DNA from: Isurus oxyrinchus
Lineage: Eukaryota
Reading direction: 5' to 3'
DNA: 64,000 bases
Assembly: GCA_026770705.1 (NCBI GenBank)
Contig: JANJGN010000006.1
Span: forward strand, 60,202,001-60,266,000
The translations under genes were made by a program, and so were the position numbers. Under the pieces are notes generated by a model, which made no database searches, was not told where the DNA came from, and saw only the letters and a list, made by a program, of their open reading frames with translations. Position 1 is the stretch's first letter. Each line of letters begins with the position of its first letter. Shown piece after piece: positions 1 to 61,935 of the stretch.

Positions 1-750
1 CCTCTTTAATAAAAGATTCTAGCATTTTCCCAATGACAGATGGACTAACCGGCCTATAATTTCCTGCTTTCTCTCTCCCTCCTTTCTTGCATAGTGGTGT
101 TACATTTATGATTTTTCAATCCGCTGGGATCTTTCCAGCATCTAAGGAATTTTGAAAGTTTGCAACCAATGCATCCACCATCTCTGCAGTCACTTCTTTT
201 AGGCCATCAGATCTAGGCACTTGTCGGCCTTACCCCCATTAGTTTTCCTAGTACAAGTACATTTTCTCTAGTGTTCATGATGGTTTTAAGTTCTTCCCTC
301 CCTTTTGCCTCTTGATTTTCTACTTTTCTTGGGATGTTTTCTGTGTCTTCTACTGTGAAGGCAGATACAAAATACTTGTTCAAAGTCTCTGCCATTTCCT
401 TGTTTCCCATTATTATTTCCCTAGTCTCATCCTCTAAGGGACCAATGCGTACTTAAGCTACTGTCTTCCTTTTTCTATACTTGTAGAAGTTTTTACTGTC
501 TGTTTTGTATTTCTTGCTAGTTTTCATTCATACTCCAATTTCTCCTTCATTTTTTTTAAGTCATCCTTTACTGGTTCCTAAAATTTTCCCAATCTCCTGG
601 GCTACTAAATTTTGCAGCATTGTACACTTCTTTCAATTTGGTATCATCCTTAACTTCCTTAGTTAATCACAAACGGTGCAGCCTTCTCATGGAGTCTTTC
701 TTTCTCAATGGATTATGTACACCTTTGTTGGGAGTTAGGACATATCTCCT
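1..750 (-). mobile_element. CR1 LINE ORF2 fragment (family A), degraded, runs off the window start
   Basis: ORF 213..410 reads MAETLNKYFVSAFTVED...KLMG, typical of the CR1 ORF2 linker before RT. The reverse complement near position 50 encodes NYRPVS. Confidence 0.85.
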
Positions 751-764
751 TATTCTAATTTTTA

Positions 765-858
765 GCCACCATGGTAGGATTTGATCCTTCTCTAGATCAT
801 TGATTCAGGCTTCTAGGAATACTAGTCTGTAATATAATCACAATGCTATCATAGCCCA
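765..858 (-). mobile_element. tRNA-like SINE/LINE-B head fragment
   Basis: Resembles the heads at 54300-54409 and 37250-37345 (gccaccatggtaggatttga...ctagtctgtaatataatcac). Confidence 0.45.
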
Positions 859-869
859 TTTGCTGTATA

Positions 870-1430
870 TTCTTGCAAATGTCACCAATGCCTTCTTTTT
901 CAAGGAGAGTTTAGTTTATGCAACCTGACAATGAGTGATAATTTTTAGGGAATAGTAAGGTTCTGGAACTATTGATTGCATTTGCAGGCTTCATGTTAAC
1001 TGTCATATTCAGATTGAACACAAAAGCATCCATTTCCATAGTTGTACAAGCCATTTGCAATGAAATGCACAACATTTTGTGCATGAATTCTTGGTATGTT
1101 GGAACAGTCATGATGCCTTCTTACTTCACCAGCCCAGTGTCCCTGCTGCATTTCACAAACAGTACTGCTGGGTGACAAGATGTACCCAATGTTCCCAAAA
1201 CCCACCTTACCACTTCACAAGATAACTGGAGCTGCCAAGGAATAGCTATGATGAAGCAAGCAGTTAAGTCAATAAATCTAACTGCACAGCATTGGGATGC
1301 TTCAAGGTAGTTTCAATTGCATGTAGACACCCAGGGGTACCTTGCAATATGTGCTAGACATCATCTCTTGAGTTACAATAGCATCATATGTGCTTCATAA
1401 TTTTGTTATTGAGAAAGAACTCATGGATCA
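870..1430 (+). pseudogene. Old Harbinger (PIF/IS5-like DDE) transposase relic
   Basis: Broken frames give IDC, SIVVQAIC, GNSHDAF, LLGDKMYP and HSIGMLQGSFNCM*TPRGTLQY...ASYVLHNF. These are Harbinger transposase motifs in the same order as at 25960-26400. Confidence 0.7.
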
Positions 1431-2980
1431 CTGAGCCCAATGATGACATTGCCAGTCCCAAAGATCTGGCTTTTGACAAACATGCTCCTTGCTCCTCATA
1501 TGTAGCCAGCACATTATCGTAATGAGCCTCACCACAGCATGGTATCCATTCCGCGTTGCTCTGATAGATAGCTAAGCACCTGAATCAGCTACTTTTCATA
1601 TTGCTGGGCAGGATTGGGGGCAGGAATGCCATCAACAGCAGGCCATATACAGAGAGTTATAGCAACTCTGGATATTAACAGGTACAATCCTGCCAATACA
1701 TTGGGGACCCAAAAATTGTGGGTCCAGTGCACTTTAGAGATCAACTCCATGTTGACAAAAGAATACAGGCCAGAGCACTAATAACAAAGATATTTTTCAG
1801 ATAAATTATGCGACCTCAGCCCTTTAACTATATCGGTACCTTTTATGCTCCTTGGCAATCCCAGGTTAGATACTATGAAGAGGCTTCTGTTGATTGTAGT
1901 TAACTTTCCAGTGGCTTTCTATTCTTTTGCTCAAAACAGTCGCAATGGGAAGAAGAATTCACTTGTAAATCTGACCTTCAGTATGTGTGAATTTTTTTCT
2001 TTTCAAAAAATGTCAATACAATCAGCTGTTAATTGGTTATCCTTATTGCACTCTAGATCGAATTGAAAAGACATCATGCGAATATTATTTAGTCTGAGCT
2101 GATAACAACCAAAAAGCAAAGCAGGAAACTTCCCAAGACCTGCTTATTTGTATAAAGAATGAAAGTGTGACAGTGGGTTTAGAATTAAAAGTGCACAGGG
2201 CCAGAGCCCCGAGCAAGGTGGAGCCACAAAGAAGAAAGGCATAGTGTATCCTGCTCTAAAATGTTAGCAAGATCCCTGTCTATCGGATTATTTTCTCCAT
2301 AGCTGACTGATCAAATGCCAGATTTTTAAATTTGGAGAGAAAAAAAAAGTACCAAATGTTGGAGTATGACAGAGTAAAGCTGTTCTGGAAACAGACCAAA
2401 TTGAGGTAAAACTGCCACTGCGATAATTTTGGGATTACAGTTCGGAAACTAATAGGAGCATTTCTATTTGTTTTGAAGATCCCACAGAATGCTTCTAGGG
2501 TAATAATAATTGCTTTGGGCCCAAATCTAGAGGATTTTAAACAGTAAAATGTAAAGTACCCAAAATAAGTAAATGCTTTATATAATTAAATTACAATTTC
2601 TAGATTGAATTTTGTTACCTGTGCATCAAATCTTTTATCCTTTATGTATATACCTTAGAAGTTAACAATACCTCTAAAAGGATAAATTTGATAAACAAAT
2701 ATTCTGCTAGATATAGGCCTCACTGAAACCTCTGAATCTTCAATATGATTTTATAGATATGATGCATTTTTATTAAATAAGAACACTTTGATATAAAGTA
2801 CTTTAAACCTGATGACCCAAAATTTCCTGAGGCCAGGCTGCAAATGGTGTATTAGTTAGACTAGTCCTTGCGCATTTAATTTTGGCAATATTTTGTGCTG
2901 CAGGTTACTGAAAGATGGAAATAGTGTGGTGTGCTCTATAGAGCAACCAGGACCTGTTTAAACAACCCAGGCAACTGGGT

Positions 2981-3080
2981 AATAAAAATAAAGTGATGGA
3001 AAACCTCAGCAGATCTGGCAGCATCTGTGGAGAGAGAAACAGTGCTAATGTTTGGAGTCCAATGTCACTTCTTCAGAGTT
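2981..3080 (-). mobile_element. Penelope-like element 3' tail with decayed hammerhead motif
   Basis: Reverse complement is aactCTGAAGAagtgacattggactccaaacatt...ctccacagatgctgccagatctgctgag, the same tail as 9479-9710 and 20005-20183. Confidence 0.65.
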
Positions 3081-3659
3081 GGTAACTGTCTCCTTAACTA
3101 ATCAGATTGAAGTATTGTGAAATTAATAGCACAAAGATTGAGAAGGAAGTGTGGAGTGAGTGAATTCAATACCAAGTCAGGTACGGAGAGGGAAGGAAAG
3201 ATTGGATTAACAGAGAGAGAGAAAAATGAGACTTAATTGAATGAAATGAGCCTTCACACTTGTACTAGTTAATTTGGTAATGTATTTAGTAACTGGGTTG
3301 ATTGAATGACACTGAGTACACCTTGTGGTAGTTGGATGTAGATTTTGTGACATGGCACTGGATTCTGGAGGCAGTTTGGACATTTCAGAGCTTTGTTCTG
3401 AAAGTGAATAGCCATTTGGGTTATAAATGAGAATAATTTAAGTAGAAACTTCATGGGGCAGTGAAGAGGGACTGTGTGGGGCTGGAACTAGGGTTCTAAA
3501 AAAGAAAATTGGACCAAAAAGTTTCTTTAGAAAGAGAAATGTGATGGTGTATGATGACCTACATTTCAGATTTTCTCCACTCTCCCACTCTAAGGATGTT
3601 ACTAATCATCTCGGCTTGCAATATAGGACTTGTGCCAACACTTAACATTTTTGGATTGC

Positions 3660-5834: not shown

Positions 5835-7032
5835 TTTTTTTTTAATCCATTCATGGGATGTGGGCTTCGCTGGCTGAGCCAGCAATTAATGCCCATCCCT
5901 AGTTGTCCATGAGAAGGTGGTGGTGAGCTGCCTTCTTGAACCGCTGCAGCCCACGTGGTGTAGGTACACCCACAGTGCTGTTAGGGAGGGAGTTCCAGGA
6001 TTTTGACCCAACGACAGTGAAGGAACAGCGATATATTTCCAATTCAGGATGGTGAGTGATTTGGAGGGGAACTTCCAAGCGGTGGTGTTCCCATCTATCT
6101 GCTGCCCTTGCCCTTCTAGATGGTTGTGGTCGTGGGTTTGGAAGGTGCTGTTGGTGAGCTCCTGCAGTGCATCTTGTGGATGGTACATACTGCTGCTACT
6201 GTGCATCAATGGTGGAGGGAGTGAATGTTTGTGGATGTGGTGCCAGTCAAGTGGGCTGCTTTGTCCTGGACGGTGTAAATCTTCCTGAGTGTTGTGGAAG
6301 CTGCATTCACCCAGGCAAGTGGGGAGTATTCCATCATACTTCTGTCTTTGTGCCTTGTAGATGGTTGACAAGCTTTGGGGAGTCAGGAGGTGAGTTACTC
6401 GTCACAGGTTTCCTAGTCACTAGCTTGCTCTTGTAGCCACAGTATTTATACGGCTAGACCAATTCTGTTTCTGGTCAATGGTAACCCCCAGGATGTTGAT
6501 AGTGGGGGATTCAGTGATGGTAATGCCATTGAACATCGAGGGGTGACAGTTAGATTCTCTCTTGTTGGAGAAGGTCATTGCCTGGCACTTGTGTGGCATG
6601 AATGTTACTTGCCACTTAGCCCAAGCCTGGATATCGTCCAGGTCTTGCTGCATTTGAACGTGGATTGCTTCAGATTCTGTGGAGTCGTGAATGGTGCTGA
6701 ACATTGTGCAATCATTAGCAAACATCCCCACTTCTGACCTCGTGATGGGAGGAAGGTCATTGATGAAGCAGCTGAAGATGGTTGGGCCAAGGACACTTTC
6801 CTTAGGAATCCCTGCAGTGATGTCCTGGAGCTGAGATGACTGACCTCTAACAACTGCAACCATTTTCCTTTGTGTTAGGTATGACTCCAACCAGTGGAGA
6901 GTTTTCCCCCTGATTTCCATTGACTTCAGTTTTGATAGGATTCCTTGATGCCACACTCAGTCAAATGTGGCCTTGATGTCAAGGGCAGTCACCCTCCCCT
7001 TACCTCGGGAGTTCAGTTCTTTGGTCCATGTT
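5835..7032 (-). mobile_element. CR1/L2-group LINE (family B), 5'-truncated RT to 3' UTR
   Basis: ORF 6420..6956 reads WHQGILSKL...SVLGPTIFSCFINDLP...MFANDC (FADD). It ends in an A-rich tail and is collinear with 51264-52440. Confidence 0.9.
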
Positions 7033-8084
7033 TGTTCATCTTTCAAATCAACAGGAGAAGGTTGAGTTTACCCATCCCAGAAGTCCAGGATATTCCGGCT
7101 AAACTTGAAGAAATAACAACTTCAGAATTACCAACTGCAGAAATGGGTGGTTGGTGATCAGGCTACACAAACCCACCCAGCAGTGTAATAATCAAAAGTG
7201 CCAGTTTACCTAGTTTAATCAGATGATCTGGCCCAATTTGGCTGCCACATTTCCTACCATCATGGCTACAGTTCAAACTACTTAATTGTTAAGCATTTTG
7301 GCACAACCTGAGACCATGAAAGCTACAAGTCTTTCTTTCTACGCAGTGATTTATCAGCAGTAGTCGAAGGCATATTCTACTGAGAACCTGCAAATCCATT
7401 TAAATACCAAATCTATAAGTTATAAGTAATGGAAATGATAGATGATTTACAAGTTTACTGACAAGTGTAATTTATTAATACATAAAACTGGATAAGGGGT
7501 ATTTATTGCCTGATGGCTAGAATGTAAAAACAGTTTGTAATTGAGCAATACATGCTAATTTAACCTGGAAGTGTTGAAATGGGTACTGATAGAAAAGTTT
7601 GTGCAATGACAAAATAAACTTGCTGTTCAGAGATCATTTCTTATGTACCTGATCAAATTCATCCATGCAGCTGCATCACACTCATTAGATCAGTCCAAAT
7701 TAGTAGAAAATATAGGCCCTATATTACTTAATATTTGTCCCAATTACTTAACAAAGTTATGACAAAACCTCTGGAGAAGTAGCTGGAAATGGCTGTTTAT
7801 GCCATTTCTCTGGAATTTCTGCCAATTTGAATGATGACAACACAGCCAAGTAATGTGCAGTGCCCTTCCACTTTTTTTGAAATTACATTTTGGGCAGAAA
7901 AATAATGGAATTTCAACAGTTTTATGGAGTAGTTACTGATCTTGGACAGTGAGTTATGAGTTACCACACATATGCATAAGTCATTATTTATGTCTTGTGC
8001 ACAAATATTTAATGCTCACTGTGCCAGATGCTTACTCATATAAGTCCTGTATTCAATAATGGTGAGAGGGTCTGACATACTGAT

Positions 8085-8530
8085 TTTTAAAAATTAATTT
8101 GTGGGATAAAGGCTAGGCCAGCATTTATTGTCCATCCCTAACTGTCCATGAGAATAAGGTGGTGAGCTGCCTTCTTGAACTGCTGTGGCGTAGGTACACC
8201 TACAGTGCTGTTGGGGAAGGCATTCCAGGATTTTGACCCAGTGACTGTGGAGGAACGGTGATATATTTCCAAGTCAGGATGGTGAGTGGCTTGGAGGGGA
8301 ACTTGCAAGTGGTGGTATTCCCACGAATCTGTTGCCCTTGGTCCTTCTAGGAGGTAGAGGTTGTGGATTTGGAAGGTGCTATCGAAGGAGCCTTGGTGAG
8401 TTGCTGCACTGCATTTTGTAGATGGTACACACTGTGTCGGTGGTAGAGGGAGTGAATGTGGAAAGTGGTGGATGGGGTACTAATCAAGCTTTGTCCTTGA
8501 TGATGCCGAGCTTCTTGAGTTGGAGCTGCA
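8085..8530 (-). mobile_element. LINE family B 3' fragment
   Basis: ccagcatttattgtccatccctaactgtcc...gagctgccttcttgaac shared with the 5835 and 51264 copies. Confidence 0.85.
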
Positions 8531-10559: not shown

Positions 10560-10900
10560 TTGTGAAATCCAAGTTTACCTCTTGTCTGAATGATGGTAAA
10601 GACGGTAAATATTGCGACGCAAGGCAAACAAACATGGGACTTGCTGCCAAGAAAAGCCAAAAACCAAGGGCAGATTGTACATAGATAGAGAGAGGGAGAG
10701 AGAGTGTCAGCAAGCAGGAGATGGAAGCTGACTAGATGCCCACTCGAACATCGATACGTCAGTCTGTTGTATTTTATTCAGAGACGGAGACAGCAGACTA
10801 GAGCCCTGCTCCGGTGCCAACAGTTTACTGAGGCAAAACAGCACCGACAACACATTTGTTACCTAGGAGACCCGAGAAACTTTGCATTTTACTGAGATCT
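10560..10900. promoter_or_regulatory. Candidate CpG-retaining regulatory segment (left half)
   Basis: Non-repetitive, with about 10 CpG in about 320 bp by eye against a CpG-depleted background, plus a GA tract. Confidence 0.3.
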
Positions 10901-12280
10901 GTCAGTGGTAGGGAAACTATCACGTCAACGGTAGGGAAACTATTGGAGAAAATTCTGAAGGAGAGAATCTATCTCCACTTGGAGGGACAAGATTTGATCA
11001 AGGATAGCCAGCATGGCTTTGTCGGTGAGAGATCATGCCTAACAAATTTGATTGAATTTTTTAAGGAGGTGACCAGGTGTGTAGATGAGGGTAGTGCAGT
11101 TGATGTAGTTTATATGGATTTCAGCAAAGCCTTTAACAAGCTCCCACATGGGAGACTTATAAAGAAGGCAAATGCACATGGGATACAGGGTAATTTGATA
11201 AGGTGGATTCAAAATTGGCTTAGTTGTAGGAGACAGAGGGTGATGACAGAAGGATGCTTTAGTGACTGGAAGCCAGTGTCCAGTGGCGTACCACAGGGAT
11301 CTGTGCTGGGTCCCATATTATTCGTCATTTATACAAGCGACATAGATGACTATGTGGGGGGTAGGATTAGTAAGTTTGCGGATGACATAAAGATTGGCCG
11401 GGTGGTTAACAGTGAAGTTGAGTGTCTTGGCCTATAGGATGATATAGACGGGGTGGTCAAATGGGCAGAAAAGTGGCAGATGGAATTTAACCCTGAATAG
11501 TGTAAGGTGATACACTTTGGAAGGAGTAATTTGACAAGGAGGTATTCAATGAACAGCATGACACTAGGAAGTTCTGAGGAACAAAGGGACCTTGGCGTGT
11601 GTGTCCATAGATCTCTGAAGGCGAAGGGGCATGTTAGTGGGGTGGTGAAAAAGGCTTTTGGGCCACTTGCCTTTATCAATTGAGGCATAGATTACAAAAG
11701 TAGGGAGATCATTTTGGAGTTATATAGATCCTTGGTGAGGCCACAGATGGAGTACTGTGTGCAGTTCTGGTTGCCACATTATAGGAAGGATGTGATTGCA
11801 CTGGAGGGGGTGCAGAGGAGATTCACCAGGATGAAACATTTAAGTCATGAAGAGAGATTGGATAGACTTGGGTTAGTTTCGTTGGAGGAGAGAAGACTGA
11901 GGGGTGACCTGATCGAGGTGTACAAGATTATGAGGGGCATGGATAGGGTGGATAGGGAGCAGCTGTTCCCCTTAGTTGAAGGGTCAGTCACGAGAGGACA
12001 TAATTCAAGGTGAGGGGCAGTAGGTTTATGGAAGGATGTGAGGAAAAACGTTTTCACCCAGAGGATGGTGATGGTCTGGAATGCACTGCGTGGGAGCGTG
12101 GTGGAGGCAGGTTGCCTCACATCCTTTAAAAAGTACCTGGATGAGCACTTGGCATGTCATAACATTCAAGGCTATGGGCAAAGTGCTGGTAAATGGGATT
12201 AGGTAGGCAGGTCAGGTGTTTCTCACATGTCGGTGCAGACTCGATGGGCCGAAGGGCCTCTTCTGCACTCTTTGATTCTG
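10901..12280 (+). mobile_element. Young 5'-truncated CR1 LINE with 8-bp TSD
   Basis: RT motifs SQHGFV, YMDFSKAF, GVPQGSVLGP and KFADD. Ends in the GATTCTG tail. TGAGATCT at 10893-10900 and 12281-12288. Confidence 0.92.
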
Positions 12281-12288
12281 TGAGATCT

Positions 12289-25410: not shown

Positions 25411-26592
25411 AAAGGGGATTGTGGCCTCCACTGAGGCACCTTCTCTGAGGAGTAAAAGAGGGCTAGAAGGGGGAAGAGGCCAGCTGTCCCTATTCAGCTT
25501 GCAGGAAAGACACCTGTGGGAGGAGAGGCACAGGCACAAGGGGTGCAGGTCCAACAGGAAGGCCAAGGTGGAAGGGGCATCAGAAGATGCCACTATCCTG
25601 CTGCGATGCAGCTACCTCAATATGTCTGAGGTGCAATGCTGAAGGAGGCTTCGTGTCTCAAGGGAGACAATGACCTCCATCTGTCAGAGGATTGGACCTG
25701 AGATCAGCTCTGACAATGTGGGTGGACACCCAATGCCAGTGGATCTGAACGTCACAGTGGTCCTAAAGGTCTATGCCTCCGGCTCTTCCCAGGGCCCAGT
25801 GGGAGATCTGCATGGATTCTCCCAATCAACTGTCCACAGTTGCGTCAAACCGGTGACAGACACTTTGTTCAGGCGTGCATTGACTTTCATTCGTTACTGT
25901 ACAGACAAGGCCAGCCAGGCTGAGCGAGCCAGAGGCTTTGCAGCAATTACTGGCTTCCCCCGCGTCCAGGGTGCAATCAAATGCACACATTTGACCATCA
26001 AGACACTAGCTGGTGAGTCAGAAGCCTTCATCAATAGCTTCCACTGCATGAACGTGCAGATAGTCTGTGACCATAGGATGCAGATTCTGCAAGTCTGTGC
26101 AAGTTACCCTGGCAGCTCCCATGACGCTTACGTACTGAGATACTCCCAGGTGCTGAAGCTCTTCAATGCGCCAGCCTGGCTAGATGGATGGCTGCTGGGT
26201 GACAAGAGCTATCTGCCACCCAAGAACAGAGGCCGAGCAGCAGCACAACAGGAGCCATGCCTCCACAAGGGCGGTGGTAGAGAGAACCATCGGTCATCTC
26301 AAGATGCACTTGCAATTCCTGGACTGTACAGGGGCTGCACTACAATACCCCCAGATTGTGTGTCACTGATAGTGGTTGCATGCTGCGCTCTGACAATCTG
26401 GCACTGGAAAATGGGGATGCAGTGAATGAAGAAGATCTTGACACAGCTGCACAGGTAACAGACAATGAGTCCAGTCGTGAGTACGAGGATGAGCACGCTC
26501 AGGAGAATGCTGAGGGCATAGATGCACATCTGAGAAATCTCCATGCAGGCAGGGACACCCGGGAAGCTTTGATCCAACACTCCTTCAGCTAG
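25411..26592 (+). pseudogene. Harbinger DDE transposase (HARBI1-like), frameshifted
   Basis: GFPRVQGAIKCTH (first catalytic D lost), MNVQIVCD, YPGSSHDAYVL, LLGDKSY, RAVVERTIGHLK. Internal stops and frameshifts. The start position is approximate. Confidence 0.85.
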
Positions 26593-33803: not shown

Positions 33804-34505
33804 GTGTGGAACTTAATACCTCCCAGCCAAGCTGGCAGTGAGTTTGGCGCGGGGGGCATTTAATTAGGCAAGAGGGTGCGGGTTGGGGATCCCACTACCT
33901 TTGCACCTCCACCTGATTAAGTCTGGGATGAGAAGGCTTGTGGACTCATTGAGACCCTTAAGTGGGCAATTAATGCCCACTTAAGGGTCTCACCCACTGC
34001 CATTGGGATTCAACCAGCAGCGGGCAGGGGAAGTCACCAAGCAGGGAACTTAAAAAGCAGAACGCTTCTAAGAAGGGGTCCCTCATTGTCAGATACTCAG
34101 TGCCTGATCGAGGGACCTGGCATCAGGTAGGGGTGTCCTGCTGAGAGCACCTCCCTGCCCTTTCTGCTGACCCCTCTCACCCCTTCTACCGTGACCCCCA
34201 TCCCACCCTCACACACCTTCAGCCTGGGATTCATCGTTGAATCTGGGATGCTGGTGGGTGCATTGCCAGCAGTTGCCACTACTCCCAGTGGCACTGACAG
34301 CAATGGAGAATTATTGACCTCTGATTGGCAACTCTCAAAGGGTGTGAATTCTGTCCCAGGGACCCTTAACCCTGAGGAAGACCCACAATGGCCACTTAAT
34401 TGCCTGATGGGCATATAATTCTGGCAGGCCTTTCCCAAGGGAGGTGATATGCCACTCCCACCAGTTCTCCAGCTGGCAGGTGAGACCCCTATCACAAATT
34501 CCGTC
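33804..34505. mobile_element. Old Harbinger-like MITE
   Basis: GC-rich island with cttaagtgggcaattaatgcccacttaag and ggccacttaattg motifs and degraded termini. Confidence 0.4.
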
Positions 34506-34751
34506 AATAATGTCCATAAGCCTACCAAACTGTAGAAGATATTTGAAGACTTCCCTATGATAATGTTTCTTCAGAAATAATGAGCACAGTAAATGTTCAA
34601 GTAACCATAAATGATGAGCATTGCATCTTTGATAAATTATTCACAAAGGATTCACTTTATGAATCAGACAAGTTATTCTTTTTTACTCGTAATGCTCATA
34701 TTCATTAGTAACTTAAGATTACGATCAAATTTTAAAGTAATGGGTGCCACA

Positions 34752-35682
34752 GTGACCTTCCCTCCATCATAAGGTCAGAAGTGCGGATGTTCGCTAATGA
34801 TTGCACAATGTTCAGCACCATTTGTAACTTCTGAGATACTGAAGCAGTCCATGTCCAAATGCAGCAAGATCTGGACAATATCCAGGCTTTGGCTGACAAG
34901 TGGCAAGTCACATTTGTGCCACACACGTGTCAGGCAATGCCCATCCCCTTCAAGAGAAAACATAACCATCGCCCCTTGACATTCAATGGCATTACTATCA
35001 CTGAATCCCCTACTATCAACATCCACTATCAACATTGACCAGAAACTGAACTGGACTAGCCAGATAAATACTGTGGCTACAAAAGCAGGTCAGAGGCTGG
35101 GAATCCTGCGCAAGTAACTCACCTCCTGACTCCCCAAATCCTGTCCACCATCTACAAGGCGCAAGTCAGAAGTGTGACGGAATACTCTCCGCTTGCCTGG
35201 ATGAGTGCAGCTCCAACAACACTCAAGCTTGACACCATCCAGGACAAAGCAGCCTGCTTGATTGGCATCCCATCCACAAACATTCAGTCCCTCCACCACT
35301 GACGAACAGTGGCAGCAGTGTGTACCATCTACAAGATGCACTGCAGAAACTCACCAAGGGTCTTTCAACAGCACCTTCCAAACCCATGACCACTACCATT
35401 TAGGAGGAAGGGCAGCAGATCAATGGGAACACCACCACCTGGAAGTTCCCCTCCAAGCCATTCATCATCCTGACTTGGAAATATATCACTGTTCCTTCAC
35501 TGTTGCTGGGTCAAAATCCTGGAACTCCGCACCTAAGAGCACTGTGGGTGTACCTACACAACATGGATTGCAGCAGTTCAAGAAGGCAGCTCACCAGTAC
35601 CTTCTCAAGGGCAATTAGGAATGGGCAATAAGTGCTAGCCTGGCCATTGACGTTGGCATCCCATAAAATGAATTTAAAAAAA
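34752..35682 (+). mobile_element. LINE family B 3' fragment
   Basis: MFANDCTMFS RT motif through the 3' UTR to an A-rich tail. Reverse complement of the 5835-6770 type. Confidence 0.88.
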
Positions 35683-35844
35683 CAATTGTCTTGGTCTTTC
35701 ATATTCCTTTTATTAATTTCAATAACAATATCAAGTGATCATACAAATTAAGATAAAAGGTATTGATGTGTGTATCTAGGAAAAAACAGCAAGCAATGGA
35801 ATAAAAAGAAATGTGTCCACAAAGTCATGATGGTAATACTATTC

Positions 35845-36176
35845 ATTCATGGAATTTGCCAACATTTATTGCCCATCCTAATTGCCCTTTGTTCTTGTGA
35901 GCATCACTGACATTCAGGTGACTGGAAGACTGTGTGTCTTAGAGTGGAACTGCGGGTGGTGGTATTCCAGTGGGGTTCTGCAGGACTCAACGATAGTGAA
36001 AGAACAGCGATATATTTTTGGTGAACCGCCTTCTTGAATAATACTAAGTGGTTTGCTAGATTATGTCAGGAGGCATTTAAGGTGCAACTGTGCTGTGGAT
36101 CTGATATCACCACATACAAGCCAGATCCAGTAAGGATGGCAGATTTCCTTCCCTAAAAGATATCAGTGGACCAATA
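35845..36176 (-). mobile_element. SINE-sized derivative of LINE B (central domain plus LINE B tail), interrupted by a 132-bp insert
   Basis: LINE B tail (atttattgcccatcctaattgccctt...gccttcttgaa) joined directly to the domain seen at 54135-54262. Confidence 0.6.
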
Positions 36177-36605
36177 TGAACTGTCATTCTTCTTCCCCCA
36201 ATTTCCCCAGTTCTCAGCTAGTGCCCATTGCCATCATATTTTCTCAGGTTTTCCAAGTCCCAGAGATCTTCAAAAGCTCCAATTGCTTTGTCTAATGAGA
36301 ACCGTTCACTAACTAGAGTTAATTTTTCTTCATGATCAGTGTTGCAATGTGCAGTTTGATCAGAGTTGCCATTGATAGGACCAGCTGATATGTTCATTCA
36401 GATATCATTTCATCGCTGTCACTGGGTCAAAGTCCCAGAATTCCCTCCTAGCATCATTGAGGCACAGTGCTTAAAAATATATTGCTGCTCCTTCAATGTA
36501 GCTGAGTCCTGCGGAACCCCACTGGAACACCACCACCTGCAAGTTCCCCTCCAAGCTACACAGACTTCCAGTCACCTGAATGCCAGTGTTGCTTACATAT
36601 ACAAA
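35888..36605. repeat. Local inverted repeat, arms 35888-36019 and 36473-36605
   Basis: About 22 differences in about 133 aligned positions (about 83%) by eye. Confidence 0.8.
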
Positions 36606-36721: not shown

Positions 36722-37345
36722 GCTACAGATTTGGAAGGTGCTGTCACAGGAACCCTAGTGTGATGCCACAGTATTTCTTATAGATTGCACAAAATGCTGC
36801 CATTCTTCATCAGTGGCTGGAGGAATGAATATTTAAGGTGATGGATACAGTGCCAGTTAAGCAGGCTGCTTTGTCCTGAATGATATGGATCTTCTTGAGT
36901 GTTGTTGGAGCTGCATTCCAGGCAAGTGGCATGAATTCCATCACATTCTTGACTTATACCTTGTACATGGCGGACAGGCTTTTGGGAGTCAAGAGGTGAA
37001 TTACTCACCACAGAGTTCCCAGCCTCTGATCTGCTCTTGTAGCCATGGTATTTATATGGCTGGTCCAATTAAGGTTTTGGTCAATGGTAACCCCCAGGAT
37101 CTTGTCTGGAGTCACATATAGGCCAAACTGGGGCAGGGTGGCGGGTTCGTTTCCCTAAAAAAAAACAGATGCTTCTACAACATTCCAGCAGTTTCCTGGT
37201 CACCATTATTGATATTTACTTCCTTTTATTCTAGATTTATTTAATTAATTGAATTCAATTCCCAAGTTGCCATGGTGGATGTGATCTTGGTGTTTCTAGA
37301 TCATTGGTCCAGACTAGTCCAGTAACATAGCCACGATGCCACCAT
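36722..37345 (-). mobile_element. Internally deleted LINE B (tRNA-like head joined to RT C-terminal part)
   Basis: 36722-37100 matches LINE B. 37100-37345 matches the head at 54185-54409 in the same orientation. Confidence 0.65.
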
Positions 37346-42524: not shown

Positions 42525-43040
42525 TCACATTATAGTAAAGATGTGATTGCACTGGAGGGGGTGCAGAGGAGATTCACCAGGATGTTGCTTGGGATGAAAC
42601 ATTTAACTTATGAAGAGAGGTTGGATAGACTTGGGTTGTTTTCATTGGAGCAGAGAAGACTGAGGGATGACCTGATCGAGGTGTACAAGATTATGAGGGG
42701 CATGGATAGGGTGGATAGGGAGCAGCTGTTCCCCTTAGTTGAAGGGTCAGTCACGAGGGCACATAAATTCAAGGTGAGGGGCAGGAGGTTTATGGGGGAT
42801 GTGAGGAAAAACTTTTTTACCCAGAGGATGGTGATGGTCTGGAATGCGCTGCCTGGGAGGGTAGTGGAGGCGGGTTGCCTCACATCCTTTAAAAAGTACT
42901 TGGATGAGCACTTGGCACGTCATAACATTCAAGGCTATGGGCCAAGTGCTGGTAAATGGGATTAGGTAGTTCAAGTGTTTCTCACGTGTCAGTGCAGACT
43001 CGATGGGCCGAAGGGCTTCTTCTGCACTGTGTGATTCTGT
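42525..43040 (+). mobile_element. Young CR1 3' fragment, same subfamily as 10901-12280
   Basis: ORF 42543..42965 is open to the stop and highly similar to 11776-12280. Tail GTGATTCTGT. Confidence 0.9.
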
Positions 43041-43693
43041 AAGCAAGTGAAGATTTTTGATGTTATTTGATGGCTGACTATAATAGCAAATTAGTATAAA
43101 GCCTCGGACAGGACTCGCATGTTTTTGTCATTAGAGCTCACATTTGATAATTGCCACATATTTTGCAATAACAAGTGATTATAATTAAGATGTTTCACCA
43201 TTGAGTATTTTTTGCTAATATTGGACTGTAAACTATATTCTTTTGTATTTTCCATTGTGCTTTGAACATTTTTGCACCATTTACAGTAAATTACTAACAA
43301 TTATAAATGACTCTGTAATAGAGAGAGATGCCTACAGTCCTTTGTGGACTATGGCTAGTTACTTACTTACTCAGAGCAATGTCAAGGCACATAAGTACTG
43401 AAACATCAATGTGCTTCACTGTTTGAAGATTAGTTTCTGCCTGCAGCTTCACCCCAAATCTCCAGTAACAAACCATCGTAAATCCTGGTGCCCACTGCAC
43501 CTCCATTTCCCTCCATTATTTTCAGTGGCAGAAAGATTGTGCAGACTGTGCCAGAATTTCAGATGTGAACCCTTCCCTGGCAGTGTTTCTTCCAGGAGGT
43601 ACAAAGTCTGAATGCTACCCATCATATCCCAGCTTCATTTGATACAGGTGTTATAGATTTACCTTCAATTGTGCCAAATGTTTGAGAGACCAA

Positions 43694-46604: not shown

Positions 46605-47590
46605 CATAGGAACACAAGTAGGCCATTTAGCCCTTCAAACCTCTTCCACCATTCAGTGAGATCTGGGCTGATCTGCAATCTAAGTGCACATATCCACCTA
46701 TGCCCCATATCCCTTAGTATTTTTGGTTAGCAAAAATCTATTAAGCTCAGATTTAAAATTGACAATCACTCCAGCATTAATGGGTGGAAGTAGTTTCTAT
46801 CTACTCCATTTCCCTTAATATCTTGAAAATCTCAATCATATCACCCCTTAACCTTCTACATTCTAGAAAAAAGAACTGTAGTTTGTCTAATATTTCCTCA
46901 AAATTTAACCCTTGGAGTCCAGGTATCAATATGGTAAGTCCCCCTCCAAGGTTGTTATAGCCTTCTTAAGGTCTTATGCCCAGAACTGCTCACAGTACTT
47001 CAATCAGGTGTGGTCTAACCAGGGCTTATATAGCATAACTACTAGCCCCTGTGTTATAGTCCTTATACAGTGGCAGGAGTGTGCACCATCTACAAGATGC
47101 ACTGCAGTCACTTGCCAAGGCTCAGCAACCACCTAAGAGAACAAGGGCAGCAGATGCATGGGGATACCACCACCTGCAAGTTCCCCTCCAAGCCATACAT
47201 CATCCTGACTTTGAAATATACCACTGTTCTCTGTAGTAGCTGTGAATTGGTAGCATCTGTAAATGCAGATAAGATGAGCATTTAGCAAAGAGAGAATAGT
47301 TTTAATGGGGGATTTTAATTTTCATTTAAATTGGGCTAAGCAGGCTAGCTCTTGTCAGAAAGTTAGTGAATTTCTTTATTGTTCAAAGTAGTTTTCAAAA
47401 GCAATATATCCTAGAACCAACAATGAACCAGCCATTTTAGATTTAGTGATGAGTAATGTGTCATATTTAGTTAACAGCCTAATAATGCATGAACGATTAT
47501 TTAATTGTGATCATAATATGGTCGAGTTCAATGTCATATTTGAAAGGGAGAAATGCAAAGCAGCTAAGATTCTATATTTAGGTAGGGCTG
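46605..47590. mobile_element. Cluster of CR1 (-, 46605-47050), LINE B (+, 47068-47230) and CR1 endonuclease (+, 47270-47590) fragments
   Basis: CR1 tail gaacataggaac...aggccatttagccc; gtgtgcaccatctacaagatgcactgc; ILDLVMSN...CDHNMVEF. Confidence 0.6.
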
Positions 47591-47779
47591 ACCTACTGCT
47601 GTCCAACTGCTCCATTCAAATTGCTTTTGCACTCAGTGTACTTACAGCGAGGGAAACAATTAAATTGAAACAAAAAGGACTGGAAATGTTTAGCTGGTCA
47701 GAAGGCATCTGTAAAAAAAAACAGATTACCATTTCAAGTTCAACCCTTCAGATTCTGATGGAGCTGCTCTGTATTATTT

Positions 47780-48922
47780 TATCCATTCATGGGATATTAG
47801 CGTCATTTGAAGGCCAGCATTTTATTGCCTGTCCCTAATTGCCCTTGAGAAGGTGATGGTGAAGTGCCTTCTTGAACTGCTGCAGTCCATGTGATGCAGG
47901 TACACCCACAGTGCTGTTAGGGAGGGAGCACCAGGATTCTAACCCAGTGACAGTGAAGGAATGGCAATGTAGTTCCAAGTCAGGCTGGTGTGTGGCTTGG
48001 AGGGGAACTTGCAGGTGGTGGTGTTCCAATGCACCTGCTGCCCTTGTTCTTCCAGGTGGCGGAAGTTGCAGATTTGGAACGTACTGTAAAAGGAATCTTG
48101 GCCCGTGGTTGCATTATTTCTTTTAGATTGTACACACTGCTGCCACTGTGCCCCTGTGATGGAGGAAGTGAATGTTTAAGGTGATCAATCAAGCAAGCTT
48201 CTTTTTTCAGGATGTTGTTGAGTTTCTTGAGTGTTATTAGAGCTACAATCGTCCAGGCAAATGGAGAGCATTCCATCACACTCCTGACTTGTGCTTTGTG
48301 AATGATGGACGGCTTTGGGGAGTTACTTGTTGCAAAATTCCCAGCCTCTGACCTGCTCTTGTAGCCACGGTATTTATATGGTTGGTCCAACTCAGTTTTT
48401 GGTCAGTGAGACCCTCAGGATGTTGATGGCGGGTGATTCAGCAATGGTAATGCCATTGAATGTCAGAGGGAGATGTTTAGATTACCTGTTGTTGGAGATG
48501 GTTATTGGAGTATGAGTTGGCATGGAGATAGCATAGGTTGACATGGGAGTATGAGGGGCCATGGGTTGTGGGTGAGAGGGCTGAGAACTAGAGGGCCTAA
48601 CAGCTCCTAAAATAAGTGACATGAAGTCCAGTAGAACTGAGGTGGGCTTTCTGACTGGCATTGACTTGCACTTATGTGGCACGAATAAAATTTGCCACTT
48701 ATCAGCCCAAGCCTGAATGTTGTCCAGGTCTTGTTGCCTGCAGGCACAAACTGCTTTGGTATCGAAAGAGTTGGAAATGAAACTGAACACTGCAGAATCA
48801 TCAGCAAGCATCCCCACTTCTGTCCTCCTGCTGAGGATGGTTGGGCCTAGGACACTACCCTGAGAAACTCCTGCAGCGATGTCCTGGGACTGAGCTGATT
48901 GGCCTCCAACAACCACAGACAT
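47780..48922 (-). mobile_element. LINE family B fragment containing a 154-bp foreign insert
   Basis: ORF 48482..48922 reads SQGSVLGPT...MLADDS...QQDLDNIQAWADKWQ and is interrupted at 48506-48659. It is flanked by Penelope-type tail pieces. Confidence 0.85.
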
Positions 48923-49871
48923 TGTTTTCTGTTTTTCTTTAGATTACCAGCATTTGTGAGACATTTTTCTTTTTATTTATACAACTAGATTGGATTGGGA
49001 AGTGAGCCAATTAGGGAAATTTAGGTATAGGAACAGGGGAATGCAGGTGAATTTATTTACAGGCATTTCCTGCATAACTTCTCAATTGCAACTAATTCCA
49101 GTGGTTAGTTGATGGATGGTTTCTTTTGTTGCAGCTTTATATCTAATTTTTTATTGAGAAACCTGGGTGGTGGGCCAAGCCACACAGGCTACCTTCAATT
49201 TTGGAAATGATCCTAGTTATTCCATGTTTACTGCACAAAGCCCTGCCAGTCACTAAAGTCTCTCTTAAACTGTGATTAAAAACTTAATAAAAAGAGGGAG
49301 CAAGCTCACCATGGGTCTAAATAGAAATAAAGACGCTGTTTTAAAATGTGATGGTCTTGCAGCGTTACTTCAGAGGACTAAAATGAACTTTTAAAACATT
49401 TTGACATGAAGTCCTGTATATTTGGTGGCATTGCTTTAAAAATTGTGGTTATGAGTCTTGCATTAGTAAATGCAAAAAATATTGCTCATATTGATGTCAT
49501 GCACTGTGAACGAGTTGTGCTAAGGTGTGATTTAAAACCTATGGGCCAGATCTTCACTACCGAGGTGGGTAGCTCGAGTAGGGAAATTTCCAACTTGGCA
49601 GACCTGCCTCGGCTTAAAGGGTCCTGTTAGACCCAATTTTCCAGGGAGGTGTGGGCGGGATAGAACTCCTGGATGCAGATCATAGGTGGCCACAGAGGTG
49701 TGTGAGTGCCGAGGCAGGCCAGTCAGAAAGCCCGCCTCAGTTCTATTGGACTTCATGTCACTTATTTTAGGAGCTGTTAGGCCCTCTAGTTCTCAGCCCT
49801 CTCACCCACAACCCATGGCCCCTCATACTCCCATGTCAACCTATGCTATCTCCATGCCAACTCATACTCCA
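48506..49871. repeat. Near-perfect inverted duplication, arms 48506-48659 and 49718-49871
   Basis: 152/154 identical. The shared translation SVLLDFMSLILGAVRPSSSQPSHPQPMAPHTPMSTYAISMPTHTP appears in ORFs on opposite strands. Confidence 0.95.
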
Positions 49872-51039: not shown

Positions 51040-54000
51040 TCTGAAGACATTGTGCACAATGACAACAACTACCACATCTCTCAACTCTTCCATTGCAGTG
51101 CTGTCACCCTGTTTCTCTGATATCAAATCCTGGCTGAGCAGAAGTTTCCTCCAATTAAACATCGGAAAATTGAAAGCACGGATTCCACCCCTTTCCCCAG
51201 GAACTGAAGCAGATTGTTTGCAACCTCGGTATTCTGTCTGGAAATTAGCTGAACTTTGGATCCTTTTTTCTTTAATTCATTCATGGGATGTGGGCATCGC
51301 TGGTTGGGCCAGTATTTTATTGTCCATCCCTAATTGCCCTTGAGAAGGTGGTGGTGAGCTGCCTTCTTGAACCTCTGCAGTCCATATGGTGTAAATATAT
51401 CCACAGTGCTGTTAAGGAGGGAGTTCCAGGATTGTGACCCAGTGACAGTGGAGGAACGGCGATATATTTCAAATTAGGATGGTAATTTGGTAGAGAACCA
51501 CCAGGTGGTGATGTTGTTCCCATCTGTCTGCTGCCCTTGCCCCTGGTGGTAGTGGTTGTGGGTTTGGAAGGTGCTGCCCAAGAAGCCTTGATAAATTCCT
51601 GCAGTGCATCTTGCAGATGGTGCACACTGCTGCCACTGTGCGTCGGTGGTGGAGGGAGTGAATGTTTGTGGATGTGATGCTAATCAAATGGACTGCTTTG
51701 TCCTGGATGGAGTCAAGCTTCTTCAGTGTTGTGGGAGCTGCATTCATCCAGGCAAGTGGGGAGGATTGCATCACACTGCTCACTTGTGCCTTGTAGATGG
51801 TGGACAGGCTTTGGGGAGTCAGGAGTGAGTTACTCATTGCAGGATTCCTAGCCTCTGATCTGCTCTTGTAGCCACAGTATTTATATGGCTAGTCCAGTTC
51901 AGTTTCTGGTCAATGGCAACCCCCAGGATGTTGACAGTGGGGGATTCAGTGATGGTAATGCCATTGAACATCAAGGGGTGATGGTTGGATTCTCTCTTGT
52001 TGGAGATGATCATTGCCTGACACTTGTGTGGCATGAACGTTACTTGCCACTTGTCAGCCTATGCTTGGATATTGTCCAGGTCTTGCTGCATTTGGACATG
52101 GGCTGCTTCAGTATCTGAGGAGTCACGAATGGTGCTGAACATTGTGCAATCATCAGCAAACATCCCCACTCCTGATCCTATGATGGAGGGAAGGTCATTG
52201 ATGAAGCAGCTAAAGGTAGTTGGGCCTAGGACACAATCCCGAAGAACCCCTGCAATGATGTCCTGGAGCTGAGATGACTGACCTCCAACAACCACAACCA
52301 TCTTCCTTTGTGCTAGGTATGACTCCAACCAGTGGAGAGTTCTTCCCCCTGATTCCCATTGACTTCAGTTTTGCTGGGGCTCCTTGATGCCACACTCGGA
52401 CAAATGCGGCCTCGGGAGTTCAGTTCTTTTGTCCATATTTGAACCAAGGCTGTAATGAGGTCAGGAGCTGAGTGGCCCTGGCGGAACCCAAATGGGGCAT
52501 CAGTGAACAGGTTATTGCTTAGCAAGTGCCACTTGATAGTACTGTTGATAACCCCTTCCATTACTTTACTGATGATGGAGAGTAGACTGATGGGGCAGTA
52601 ATTGGCCGGGTTGGATTTGCCCTGCTTTTTGTGTATAGGACATACCTGGGCAATTTTCCATATAGCCAGGTTGATGTCAGTGTTGTAGCTGCACTGGAAC
52701 AGCTTGGCTAGAGGTGTGGCAAGTTCCGGAGCACAATTCTAAAGTACTATTGCCAGAATATTGTCAGGGCCCATAGCCTTTGCAGTATCCAGTGCCTTCA
52801 GCCGTTTCTTGATATCACATGGAGTGAACCGAATTGGCTGAAGATTGGCATATATGATGCTGGGAACCTCCAGAGGAGGCCTAGATTGATCATCCACTCG
52901 GCACTTTTTGGTAAAGATTGTTCTGAATGCTTCAGCCTTATCTTTTGCGCTGCTGTACTGAGCTCCTCCATCATTGAAGAAGTGGATATTTGTAGAGCCT
53001 CCTCCCCCAGTGAGTTGTTGAATTGTCTACCACCATTCACGACTGGATGTGGTAGGACTGCAGAGCTTAGACTTGATCCGTTGGTTGTGGGATCGCTTAG
53101 CTCTGTCTGTCACTTGCTGCTTATGCTGTTTGGCACGTAAGTAGTCCTGTGTTATAGCTTCACCGGGTTGGCACCACATTTTTAGGTATGCCTGCAGGCT
53201 GCTCCTGCACTCTTCATTGAACCAGGATTGATCCCCTGGCTTAATGGCCATGGTAGAGTGGAGGATATGCCGGGCCATGAGATTGTGTTCTAGTACAATT
53301 CGGCTGCTGCTAATGGCCCACAGCGACTCATGGATGCCCAGTCTTGAGTTGCCAGATCGGTTCAAAATCTATCCCATTTAGCACAGTGGTAGTGCCACAA
53401 AACACGATGGAGGGTATCCTCAATGTGAAGGCTTCGTCTCCACAAGGACTGCAGTGGTCTCTCCTACCGATACTGTCATGGACAGATGCATCCGCGGCAG
53501 ATAGTTTGGTGAGGCTGAGGTCAAGTATGTTTTTCCCTCTTGTTGGTTCTCACCACCTGCCGCACCCAGCCTAGCAGCTATGTCAGTAATAATGCTACCA
53601 AGCCACTCTTGGTGATGGATTTTGAAGTCCCCCACCCAGAGTACATTCTGCGCCCTTGCCACCCTCAATGCTTCCTCCAAGTGATGTTCAACGTGGAGGA
53701 GCACTGATTCATCAGCTGAGGGAGGGCATTACGTGGTAATCAGCAGGAGGTTTCCTGCCCATGTTTTACCTGAAGTCTCATGGCACCAGGTCTAGAGTCG
53801 ATGTTGAGGATTCCCAGGGCAGCCCCCTTCCGATTGTATACCACTGTGCTGCCACCTCTGCTTGGTCTGTCCTACTGGTGGGACTGAGCATCATCCACCC
53901 AGGGATGGTGGTGGTGGAGTCTGGGACATTATCTGTAAGATATGATTCCATGAGGGTGACTATAGGCTGTTGCTTGACTAGTTTTGGCATTAGCCTCCAG

Positions 54001-54840
54001 ATGTAATGAGTAAGGAGGACTTTACAGGGTCGACAGGGATGTGATTGCCATTGTTGTTTCCAGTGCCTAGGATGATGCCAGGTGTTCTGTCCGGTTTCAT
54101 TACTTTTGTGAGACTTTGTTGCGGTTTGTTACATCTGAGTGCTTGCTAGGCCAGTTTGAGGACATTTAAGACTTAACCACGTTTCCGTGGGTCTAGGGTC
54201 ACATGTACCAGGTAAGGACAACAGATTTCCTTCTCTAAGGGCATTAGTGAACCAGATGGGTTTTTACAACAGACTTTTAATTCTAGATTTTTTATTGAAT
54301 TCAAATTCTGCCATCTGCCGTGGCGGAATTCAAACCTGGGTCCCCAGGGCATTACCCTGGGTCTCTAGATTATCAGTCCAGTGACAATACTGCTACGCCA
54401 TCGCCTCCCTCTATATTCTCTCCATTACAAAGCTTGCCTTCATCCTGCCCCTGTCACCTCAAGATGATCATGCCAGTGCTCTCCAAGCCACCCTCCCATT
54501 TTCTCACCATCCAAAAACTTCAGCTCACCTAAAACTATGCTCCTTATATCCTATCCCACACAACCGCCAATCACTCATCCCATGCTTTGTTGGCTCCTTA
54601 ACCCTAACATCATAAATTTCTCATTCTCATCCTCACACCTCCATGTTTCTGTAACTCCACCAGCTCTACCACGTTCTGAGAACTCTGCATTCATCTAATT
54701 CTGGCCTCTTGCCCAATCTCCACTCCCATTGTCTGACCATTCAGCCTCCCAGGTGGTAAGCTATGGAATTCAGTCTCTAAATCTTTCCACTGCCATTTCC
54801 TCCTTTAAGACCTTCCTTAAAACTTACCTCTTTAAAGATG
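51040..54840 (+). mobile_element. L2 LINE fragment (51040-51263 and 54410-54840) split by the LINE B insertion
   Basis: CFSDIKSWLSRSFLQLNIGK on the left; tctaattctggcctcttg...ctcctttaagaccttccttaaaac on the right. Confidence 0.7.
51264..54409 (-). mobile_element. Near-full-length LINE family B: tRNA-like head, APE endonuclease, RT, 3' tail
   Basis: Endonuclease pieces KQQPIVTLMESYL and VLWVGDF. RT pieces FGFRQGHS, VLGPTTFSCFINDLP and MFADDC. Head with A box (rc of 54389-54400) and B box (rc of 54325-54336). Confidence 0.88.
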
Positions 54841-61679: not shown

Positions 61680-61935
61680 GCAATACCACGAGGGTTCTGC
61701 TAGTACATCACCATCCTTTCCAAGTCTCCCACCATCCCAACATGGACACAGCATTGTTTCTTCGTCATTGGGTCAAAATCCTGGAACTCCCTGCCTAACA
61801 ACATTGCAGGAATACTTTGAATAGACAGACTGTAGTGGTTCAAGAAGGCATCCAACCACAATCTTAGCAACTAGGAATGGACAATAAATGCCAGCCTTGT
61901 TAGTGATACCTATATTCAAGAAGGAATTTTTAAAA
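61680..61935 (+). mobile_element. LINE family B 3' UTR fragment
   Basis: gggtcaaaatcctggaactccctgcctaaca...ggttcaagaaggca...caataaatgccagccttg. Confidence 0.7.

Follow-up and report, generated by a model that had tools for sequence, protein, structure and literature searches.

The stretch of Isurus oxyrinchus DNA analyzed here (the window, 64,000 nt of contig JANJGN010000006.1) carries on its minus strand a LINE that opens with sequence resembling the head of a SINE. The locus raises three questions: whether this head belongs to the LINE or lies beside it by chance, which RNA polymerase copies such an element, and how the LINE and its SINE-sized relatives descend from one another.

Identity and anatomy of the element

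The element at 51264–54409 (minus strand) was identified as a decayed, near full-length copy of an elasmobranch Zenon LINE. Its first 400 nt match CarCar_Zenon-1 (PMC13343379 supplement), with near-identity over the ~400 nt of the published row by eye and by motif search, and on this match, which covers ~400 nt of the consensus, it is assigned to the elasmobranch Zenon (CR1 group) of that paper. The published families (CarCar_Zenon-1 and SquAca_Zenon-1 among them) are given there with the same 5' sequence, a length of ~3.29 kb, endonuclease (EN) and reverse transcriptase (RT), no ORF1 and an A tail. A family majority was derived from 25 aligned copies, namely the 24 least interrupted of 39 loci plus the window copy. 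This majority (3290 nt) contains one frame of 969 codons (319–3225) with EN motifs and RVT_1 matches, preceded by 318 nt. Its sole interruption is a CpG-type stop, at which 14 of the 25 copies read TGA, 7 CGA and 4 CAA. The window copy diverges from the majority by 8.6% and is a dead copy of a single-frame EN/RT Zenon retrotransposon of sharks and rays.

That the minus-strand element starts with an A box and a B box for Pol III, as the preliminary description held, was confirmed. From 54409 the order is A box (54400–54390), tRNA-like anticodon hairpin, B box (54336–54326, with one CpG-type change inside), AT-rich linker, a conserved block of ~150 bp, and a broken EN-RT frame that runs to 51330. 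The head occupies 54322–54409. The linker (54272–54321) is diagnostic of subfamily age and has a 28-nt deletion in the window copy. The conserved block, or body (54130–54271, family positions ~166–317), ends 3' in a hairpin with a 7-nt loop at 54149–54143. A short AUG-started frame (53990–54100, 35 aa in the family) overlaps the EN start in another frame, and the single APE endonuclease plus RT frame (51330–54128) is broken by stops and frameshifts in the window copy. A short 3' UTR with AATAAA (51264–51329) follows, closing in a short A-rich tail at 51264; this end is common to the SINE families described below. The endonuclease frame begins at 54128, with the EN motif ~110 bp past the conserved block, so that an ORF1 would not fit. 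The earlier characterization of a LINE lacking ORF1 stands in this respect, but the absence is no surprise, since Zenon is always without ORF1 and with a poly(A) tail in the accessible part of PMC13343379. The aligned full-length copies likewise end in a short A tail.

The majority head was aligned to a tRNA-Ser(AGA) gene of the same genome, the one tRNA used in this comparison (gene type from ARAGORN calls at 5 of 6 loci). The score was 54, against a shuffle mean of 18.7, and 0 of 2000 shuffles scored as high. ARAGORN and Rfam called no tRNA on the head itself. Judged from the alignment, the head evidently derives from tRNA-Ser, with the A and B boxes kept at tRNA spacing.

For the body, the proposed resemblance to the Meta domain of MetaSINEs had to be abandoned: compared by eye, it does not resemble the printed 66-bp Meta consensus (PMC7245038 Fig. 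S4). The Deu domain was rejected as well, as a mere 10-mer is common to the body and one printed Deu row of that figure (by eye). SacSINE1/DeuSINEs and MetaSINEs (PMC5499810, PMC4824008, PMC7245038 Fig. S4) likewise combine a tRNA head with a conserved body in sharks, but SacSINE1 is described in the accessible parts of PMC5499810 and PMC4824008 with a Deu body and an L2 tail, whereas the Zenon-derived body matches neither printed domain and the tail is that of Zenon. Searches with the body motif gave no match in viral contigs or in the main texts of papers.

Both flanks of the element translate on the plus strand into collinear RT-like peptides (51060–51262 on the left, 54410–54760 on the right), the parts of an interrupted host repeat which, from its motifs, we take to be an L2. 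The genome search for a joined empty site of this repeat returned no spanning match. A clear target-site duplication was not seen at the window element, nor a consistent one among the 25 Zenon copies. Interruption of one L2 by the element, as first described, is plausible from the collinear peptides, with the missing empty site and duplication on the other side.

The head within the LINE family

One account of the locus is the chance insertion of a SINE just 5' of a 5'-truncated LINE, and SINEs do insert into Zenon copies of this genome (L112, L124, L126 and L169). When head plus EN was used as query, all 40 scored candidates (of 14,734 candidates) matched, with unrelated 5' flanks. Because this hit set is biased, an internal, head-free piece was used as query. 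Among the 29 other copies so obtained, 16 start no more than 20 nt into the head, 3 elsewhere in the head or in the leader, and 10 are truncated further in; none has an alternative 5' UTR. The 13 upstream flanks of the copies that start inside the head or leader or further in shared no sequence in register at the junction. As the head-free query and these unrelated flanks reveal no other 5' end, the full-length copies with a different 5' UTR or an ORF1 that would have marked a chance neighbor were not encountered.

The same arrangement is found outside the window genome. In the supplement of PMC13343379, at ~400 nt per row, head and body open every one of the 7 consensus rows for elasmobranch Zenon, which come from five species including sharks and a ray, and within the same ~400 nt the head is absent from 3 of 3 non-elasmobranch rows (2 hagfish, 1 coelacanth). 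A head/body profile found no match (best E 1.7) at 80 metagenome loci encoding relatives, a set not verified as Zenon. Sharks and rays separated about 250–300 million years ago. The head-endonuclease junction, which the preliminary description had singled out for checking, is identical in dozens of unlinked copies and recurs in five species; the chance insertion is refuted, and its probability is negligible. The head is a fixed part of the Zenon LINE family in the window genome and in five shark and ray species, not an adjacent insertion. It would have been gained in the elasmobranch lineage by a template switch to a tRNA or a tRNA-headed RNA during reverse transcription.

The family itself has already been published (PMC13343379), and the tRNA head is a real, family-wide feature of a known LINE. 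The main text of that paper contains 0 matches for tRNA, promoter or polymerase III, and does not describe the tRNA head, the T-run avoidance, the missing AUG or the derived SINEs. A literature search (most subscription papers lay outside its scope) yielded no report of a coding LINE with a tRNA head from sharks and no description of the Zenon head; Repbase, Dfam or SINEBase entries may already contain the SINEs. The accessible part of PMC3747384 and a search of the PMC5804259 supplement (no matches) added nothing on the element. Small-RNA sequence fused to a retroelement is also seen in tRNA/LINE-1 chimeras (PMC13174262) and in TRIMp3 (PMC10886601). As presented in the accessible parts of these papers, the former are 21 one-offs, mostly with antisense tRNA halves, and the latter are short non-coding LTR elements, whereas the shark head is fixed, in sense orientation, full, and carried by a coding family.

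Transcription and translation of the full-length element

The consensus was inspected for T-runs, as had been suggested. On the sense strand of the 3290-nt majority there are 0 runs of T≥4 against 4.4 expected (P = 0.009), with A, C and G runs near expectation; the avoidance is limited to the sense strand. Within the frame, T≥3 runs number 4, whereas shuffling of synonymous codons gives 12.5 (no count this low in 1000 shuffles). Across 136 Zenon RT fragments (118.6 kb), 48 T4 runs were counted against 230 expected, a comparison that does not represent 136 independent tests because the copies share ancestors. In 16 CR1 RT fragments of the same genome (10.4 kb) there were 41 against 29 expected. 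This CR1 RT row was the only valid sense-strand control, and the other repeat rows were left out (strand unknown or wrong; the L2 row held 1 copy). Decayed Zenon copies have a median of 2 T≥4 runs, and the window copy has 2. All 27 of the metagenome relatives considered (27 of 80) carry T4 runs.

The significance of T4-run avoidance depends on the null model used. TT dinucleotides are generally low in the majority (94 vs 136), a first-order Markov control gave P = 0.19 for zero T4 and P = 0.08 for six T3, and synonymous shuffles gave P = 0.076 for zero T4. Serving as T-run control, an RT-bearing, CR1-like LINE fragment also lies in the window at 10832–12284 (plus strand; RVT_1 E 1.7e-22), 90% identical to 42526–43043.

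Because the tRNA-derived head is family-wide and T-runs are avoided, copying by RNA polymerase III is the reading we prefer, and Zenon is probably transcribed by that enzyme. The head would act as an internal Pol III promoter for the whole 3.3-kb RNA. Since there is no T4 stop inside the element, Pol III would run through it and end at a flanking T-run. Counting against this, Kojima argues in PMC10886601 that such RNAs are confined to about 1 kb by the processivity of Pol III.

The head may instead be family-wide while Pol II produces the LINE RNA, either by read-through or starting at a promoter in the head or body; the A and B boxes would then serve the SINEs only or be vestigial, and the low oligo-T would have another cause. 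The 3' UTR with AATAAA and terminal A's fits Pol II, and translation by default requires a cap. The general TT depletion and the non-significant Markov controls also fit, as does the rule stated in the accessible part of PMC10886601, which assigns non-LTR elements to Pol II (Pol II for LINEs, Pol III for SINEs). Transcription by Pol II is nevertheless rather unlikely, in that LINE consensus rows of five species retain the boxes precisely at their 5' end, and T-runs are not depleted in the CR1 of this genome, nor are they in four head-less relatives of matched T content (T4 runs 2, 7, 4 and 10 vs 3.5, 5.0, 4.1 and 6.4 expected). If Pol III transcription holds, a coding LINE that kept a tRNA promoter across sharks and rays, with its T-runs purged, would be a natural Pol III messenger RNA.

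Contigs of four sequencing runs (among 23) cover the element, and these contigs are without start, strand or level information. Runs guessed to be RNA had shares of 0.18 or less, and the contigs were left out of the argument on transcription. For run X16, labelled coral metatranscriptome, ~3000 contigs match the element with the same differences as in the other runs, and contamination or a mixed sample is the likely source.

The start of the EN-RT protein was considered separately. The first Met of the 969-codon frame is residue 285, and no AUG opens the EN-RT frame. An AUG at family position 347 opens the 35-aa frame, which overlaps the EN start out of frame; its ATG is present in 21 of 25 copies, 92 nt 5' of the EN motif, and in 17 of 25 the offset is 2 mod 3. 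The protein may start by frameshift or re-initiation from this mini-frame, or by non-AUG entry. An uncapped Zenon RNA would be translated cap-independently, a step suggested by the lack of an AUG opening the EN frame, and Zenon would then be a test case for cap-independent, AUG-independent translation.

In the dicistrovirus intergenic IRES, several pseudoknots form a conserved fold, at whose end a mimic of anticodon and codon precedes a start without AUG. The hairpin at 293–307 of the Zenon majority bears AGC in its 7-nt loop, and GCT stands at 325 in the EN frame, 25 nt on; in 57 of 76 copies the AUG follows this GCT by 22 nt. The possible pairing is 3 bp only. In stability the body fold did not surpass shuffles (z = -0.22, with lower values of -3.2 and -2.2 for two ORF controls), and neither covariation in the body nor an Rfam match to it was found. 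By this analogy the body might work like a dicistrovirus-type intergenic IRES, which we consider improbable.

SINE-sized derivatives and their origin

Head-only matches were followed into their 3' sequence at 29 loci: 13 run into the LINE, 13 join straight to its last ~73 nt, 1 has another deletion and 2 consist of the head only. Three fixed junctions between family positions were distinguished by exact 21-mer matches, with counts that are lower bounds (reversed controls 0): type a joins 291 to 3216 (at least 3767), type b 314 to 3215 (at least 3449) and type c 317 to 3187 (at least 49), compared with at least 2227 for the LINE leader. All three have the properties of SINEs (100–700 bp, multicopy, fixed structure), with tRNA head, body and LINE-shared tail in ~360–420 bp. 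Median body divergence from the own group majority was 9.6% for the LINE, 10.1% for type a, 12.0% for type b and 23.8% for type c (rough values; truncated rows were counted as well).

In a tree of 52 near-full heads (from 80 sampled, plus the window copy), type-a and LINE heads were intermixed in one group (91/91, support below the starred threshold of the tool), with types b and c outside. Type-a tails lacked all three b-specific states (0 of 20 each). The youngest SINE type has head and tail states in common with the present LINE. Of 25 full-length LINEs sampled, just 2 have the state most frequent in type-a tails, so the parent of type a would be a sister subfamily. By eye, the type-c head resembles that of SquAca_Zenon-1, a Squalus LINE. 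The older linker was followed at 30 loci: the tail is present at 26, and a LINE frame at 0; parents of types b and c were therefore not found as full-length LINEs in the window genome.

Older joins lie in the window itself. The reported union of head and LINE RT sequence at 36722–37345 was upheld by profile search: at 36727–37344 (minus strand) an older-type head (37344–37104, E 4.6e-21) is followed by RT (37104–36727, family positions 2619–2993, 64% aa identity), making this an internally deleted copy of an older subfamily. The piece described at 35845–36176 as head or domain joined to the LINE tail proved correct in part. It is a 5'-truncated SINE of the oldest junction type, c (35841–36174, minus strand), in which the body (36174–36043) is followed by the tail (36017–35841, E 1.3e-22), but it has no A/B boxes and includes ~115 bp of extra sequence within the tail.

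All SINE sequence is collinear with the LINE ends, without any SINE-specific segment. A deletion joining head and body to the last 70–100 nt would at once yield a promoter-bearing, RT-recognized SINE, and the SINE families likely arose by repeated internal deletion of the LINE, the simplest reading. The LINE-to-SINE series of the preliminary description is retained in this form: head-plus-tail families with fixed junctions are best explained by internal deletion, whereas for capture of a ready-made SINE, no free-standing SINE was seen that combines the head with a tail from outside Zenon.

The opposite direction, also compatible with Pol III use, is that a pre-existing SINE (tRNA head, body and Zenon tail) gave its head to the LINE, later heads being swapped by template switching and the SINEs remaining independent. 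Types a and b share one 3' breakpoint, for which descent of one SINE from another, with exchange of heads, also accounts. In the window genome, LINEs bearing a type-b or type-c head are outnumbered by the SINEs of those types. Non-shark Zenon relatives offer no match to the body, which under this account came from elsewhere. Against such a donor stand the collinearity of every SINE base with the LINE ends, the derived states common to type a and the LINE, which are present at either end as far as the junction, and the old-type head joined to old RT sequence at 36727–37344; we regard it as unlikely.

Internal deletion is accordingly the origin carried forward here. A full-length RNA driven by the tRNA-Ser head as internal Pol III promoter, together with repeated birth of SINEs by internal deletion, would explain LINE and SINEs jointly, and on the sequence evidence this combination has a somewhat better than even chance of being right. 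A wider proposal is held only tentatively, as a possibility: Zenon as an autonomous coding element with an end-to-end Pol III RNA from the tRNA-Ser head, translated free of cap and AUG via the body (possibly an IRES-like pseudoknot), and a standing SINE factory in which a single deletion suffices for a complete SINE, as would have happened three or more times in the lineage. By such a deletion series SINEs would arise in one step, a new route whose generations are dated within a single genome. The SINEs nested in Zenon copies L112, L124, L126 and L169 are of type a and are usable for dating.

Among known systems, lepidopteran Zenon with Persaeus is similar in that Zenon yields, perhaps repeatedly, short 5'+3' deletion derivatives with poly(A). 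As described in the accessible part of PMC6740152, Persaeus lacks both homology to tRNA and a promoter for Pol III, whereas the shark derivative is a SINE by every sequence criterion. Bipartite RTE/Vingi SINEs (Kojima 2018, PMC5786205) similarly unite an RNA head with 5' and 3' LINE parts; there, in the portion available, the head is added to a deleted LINE, in RTE and Vingi only, whereas in the shark the full-length coding LINE already has the head. Bivalve SINEs also use Zenon tails, according to the accessible part of PMC11481361. The abundant Zenon family will be mis-split by repeat libraries into SINE and LINE hits.

Further repeats were recorded in the window. Additional 5'-truncated Zenon copies of differing ages lie at 5838–7034, 8097–8530, 34749–35680, 47066–47230, 47775–48932 and 61705–61927. 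A rearranged Zenon 3' fragment is present as an inverted 83% duplicate (36406–36605, plus strand; 35888–36019, minus strand), with no other copy among 40 scored genome matches. A 154-bp inverted pair (48506–48659 and 49718–49871, 98.7% identical), the first member inside an interrupted Zenon copy, possibly represents the ends of a young DNA element. At 33950–33992 there is a 43-bp near-perfect palindrome. A 260-aa frame at 25643–26425 (plus strand) matches DDE_Tnp_4 (E 8e-13), a PIF/Harbinger-type transposase, with more open frames to ~28900.
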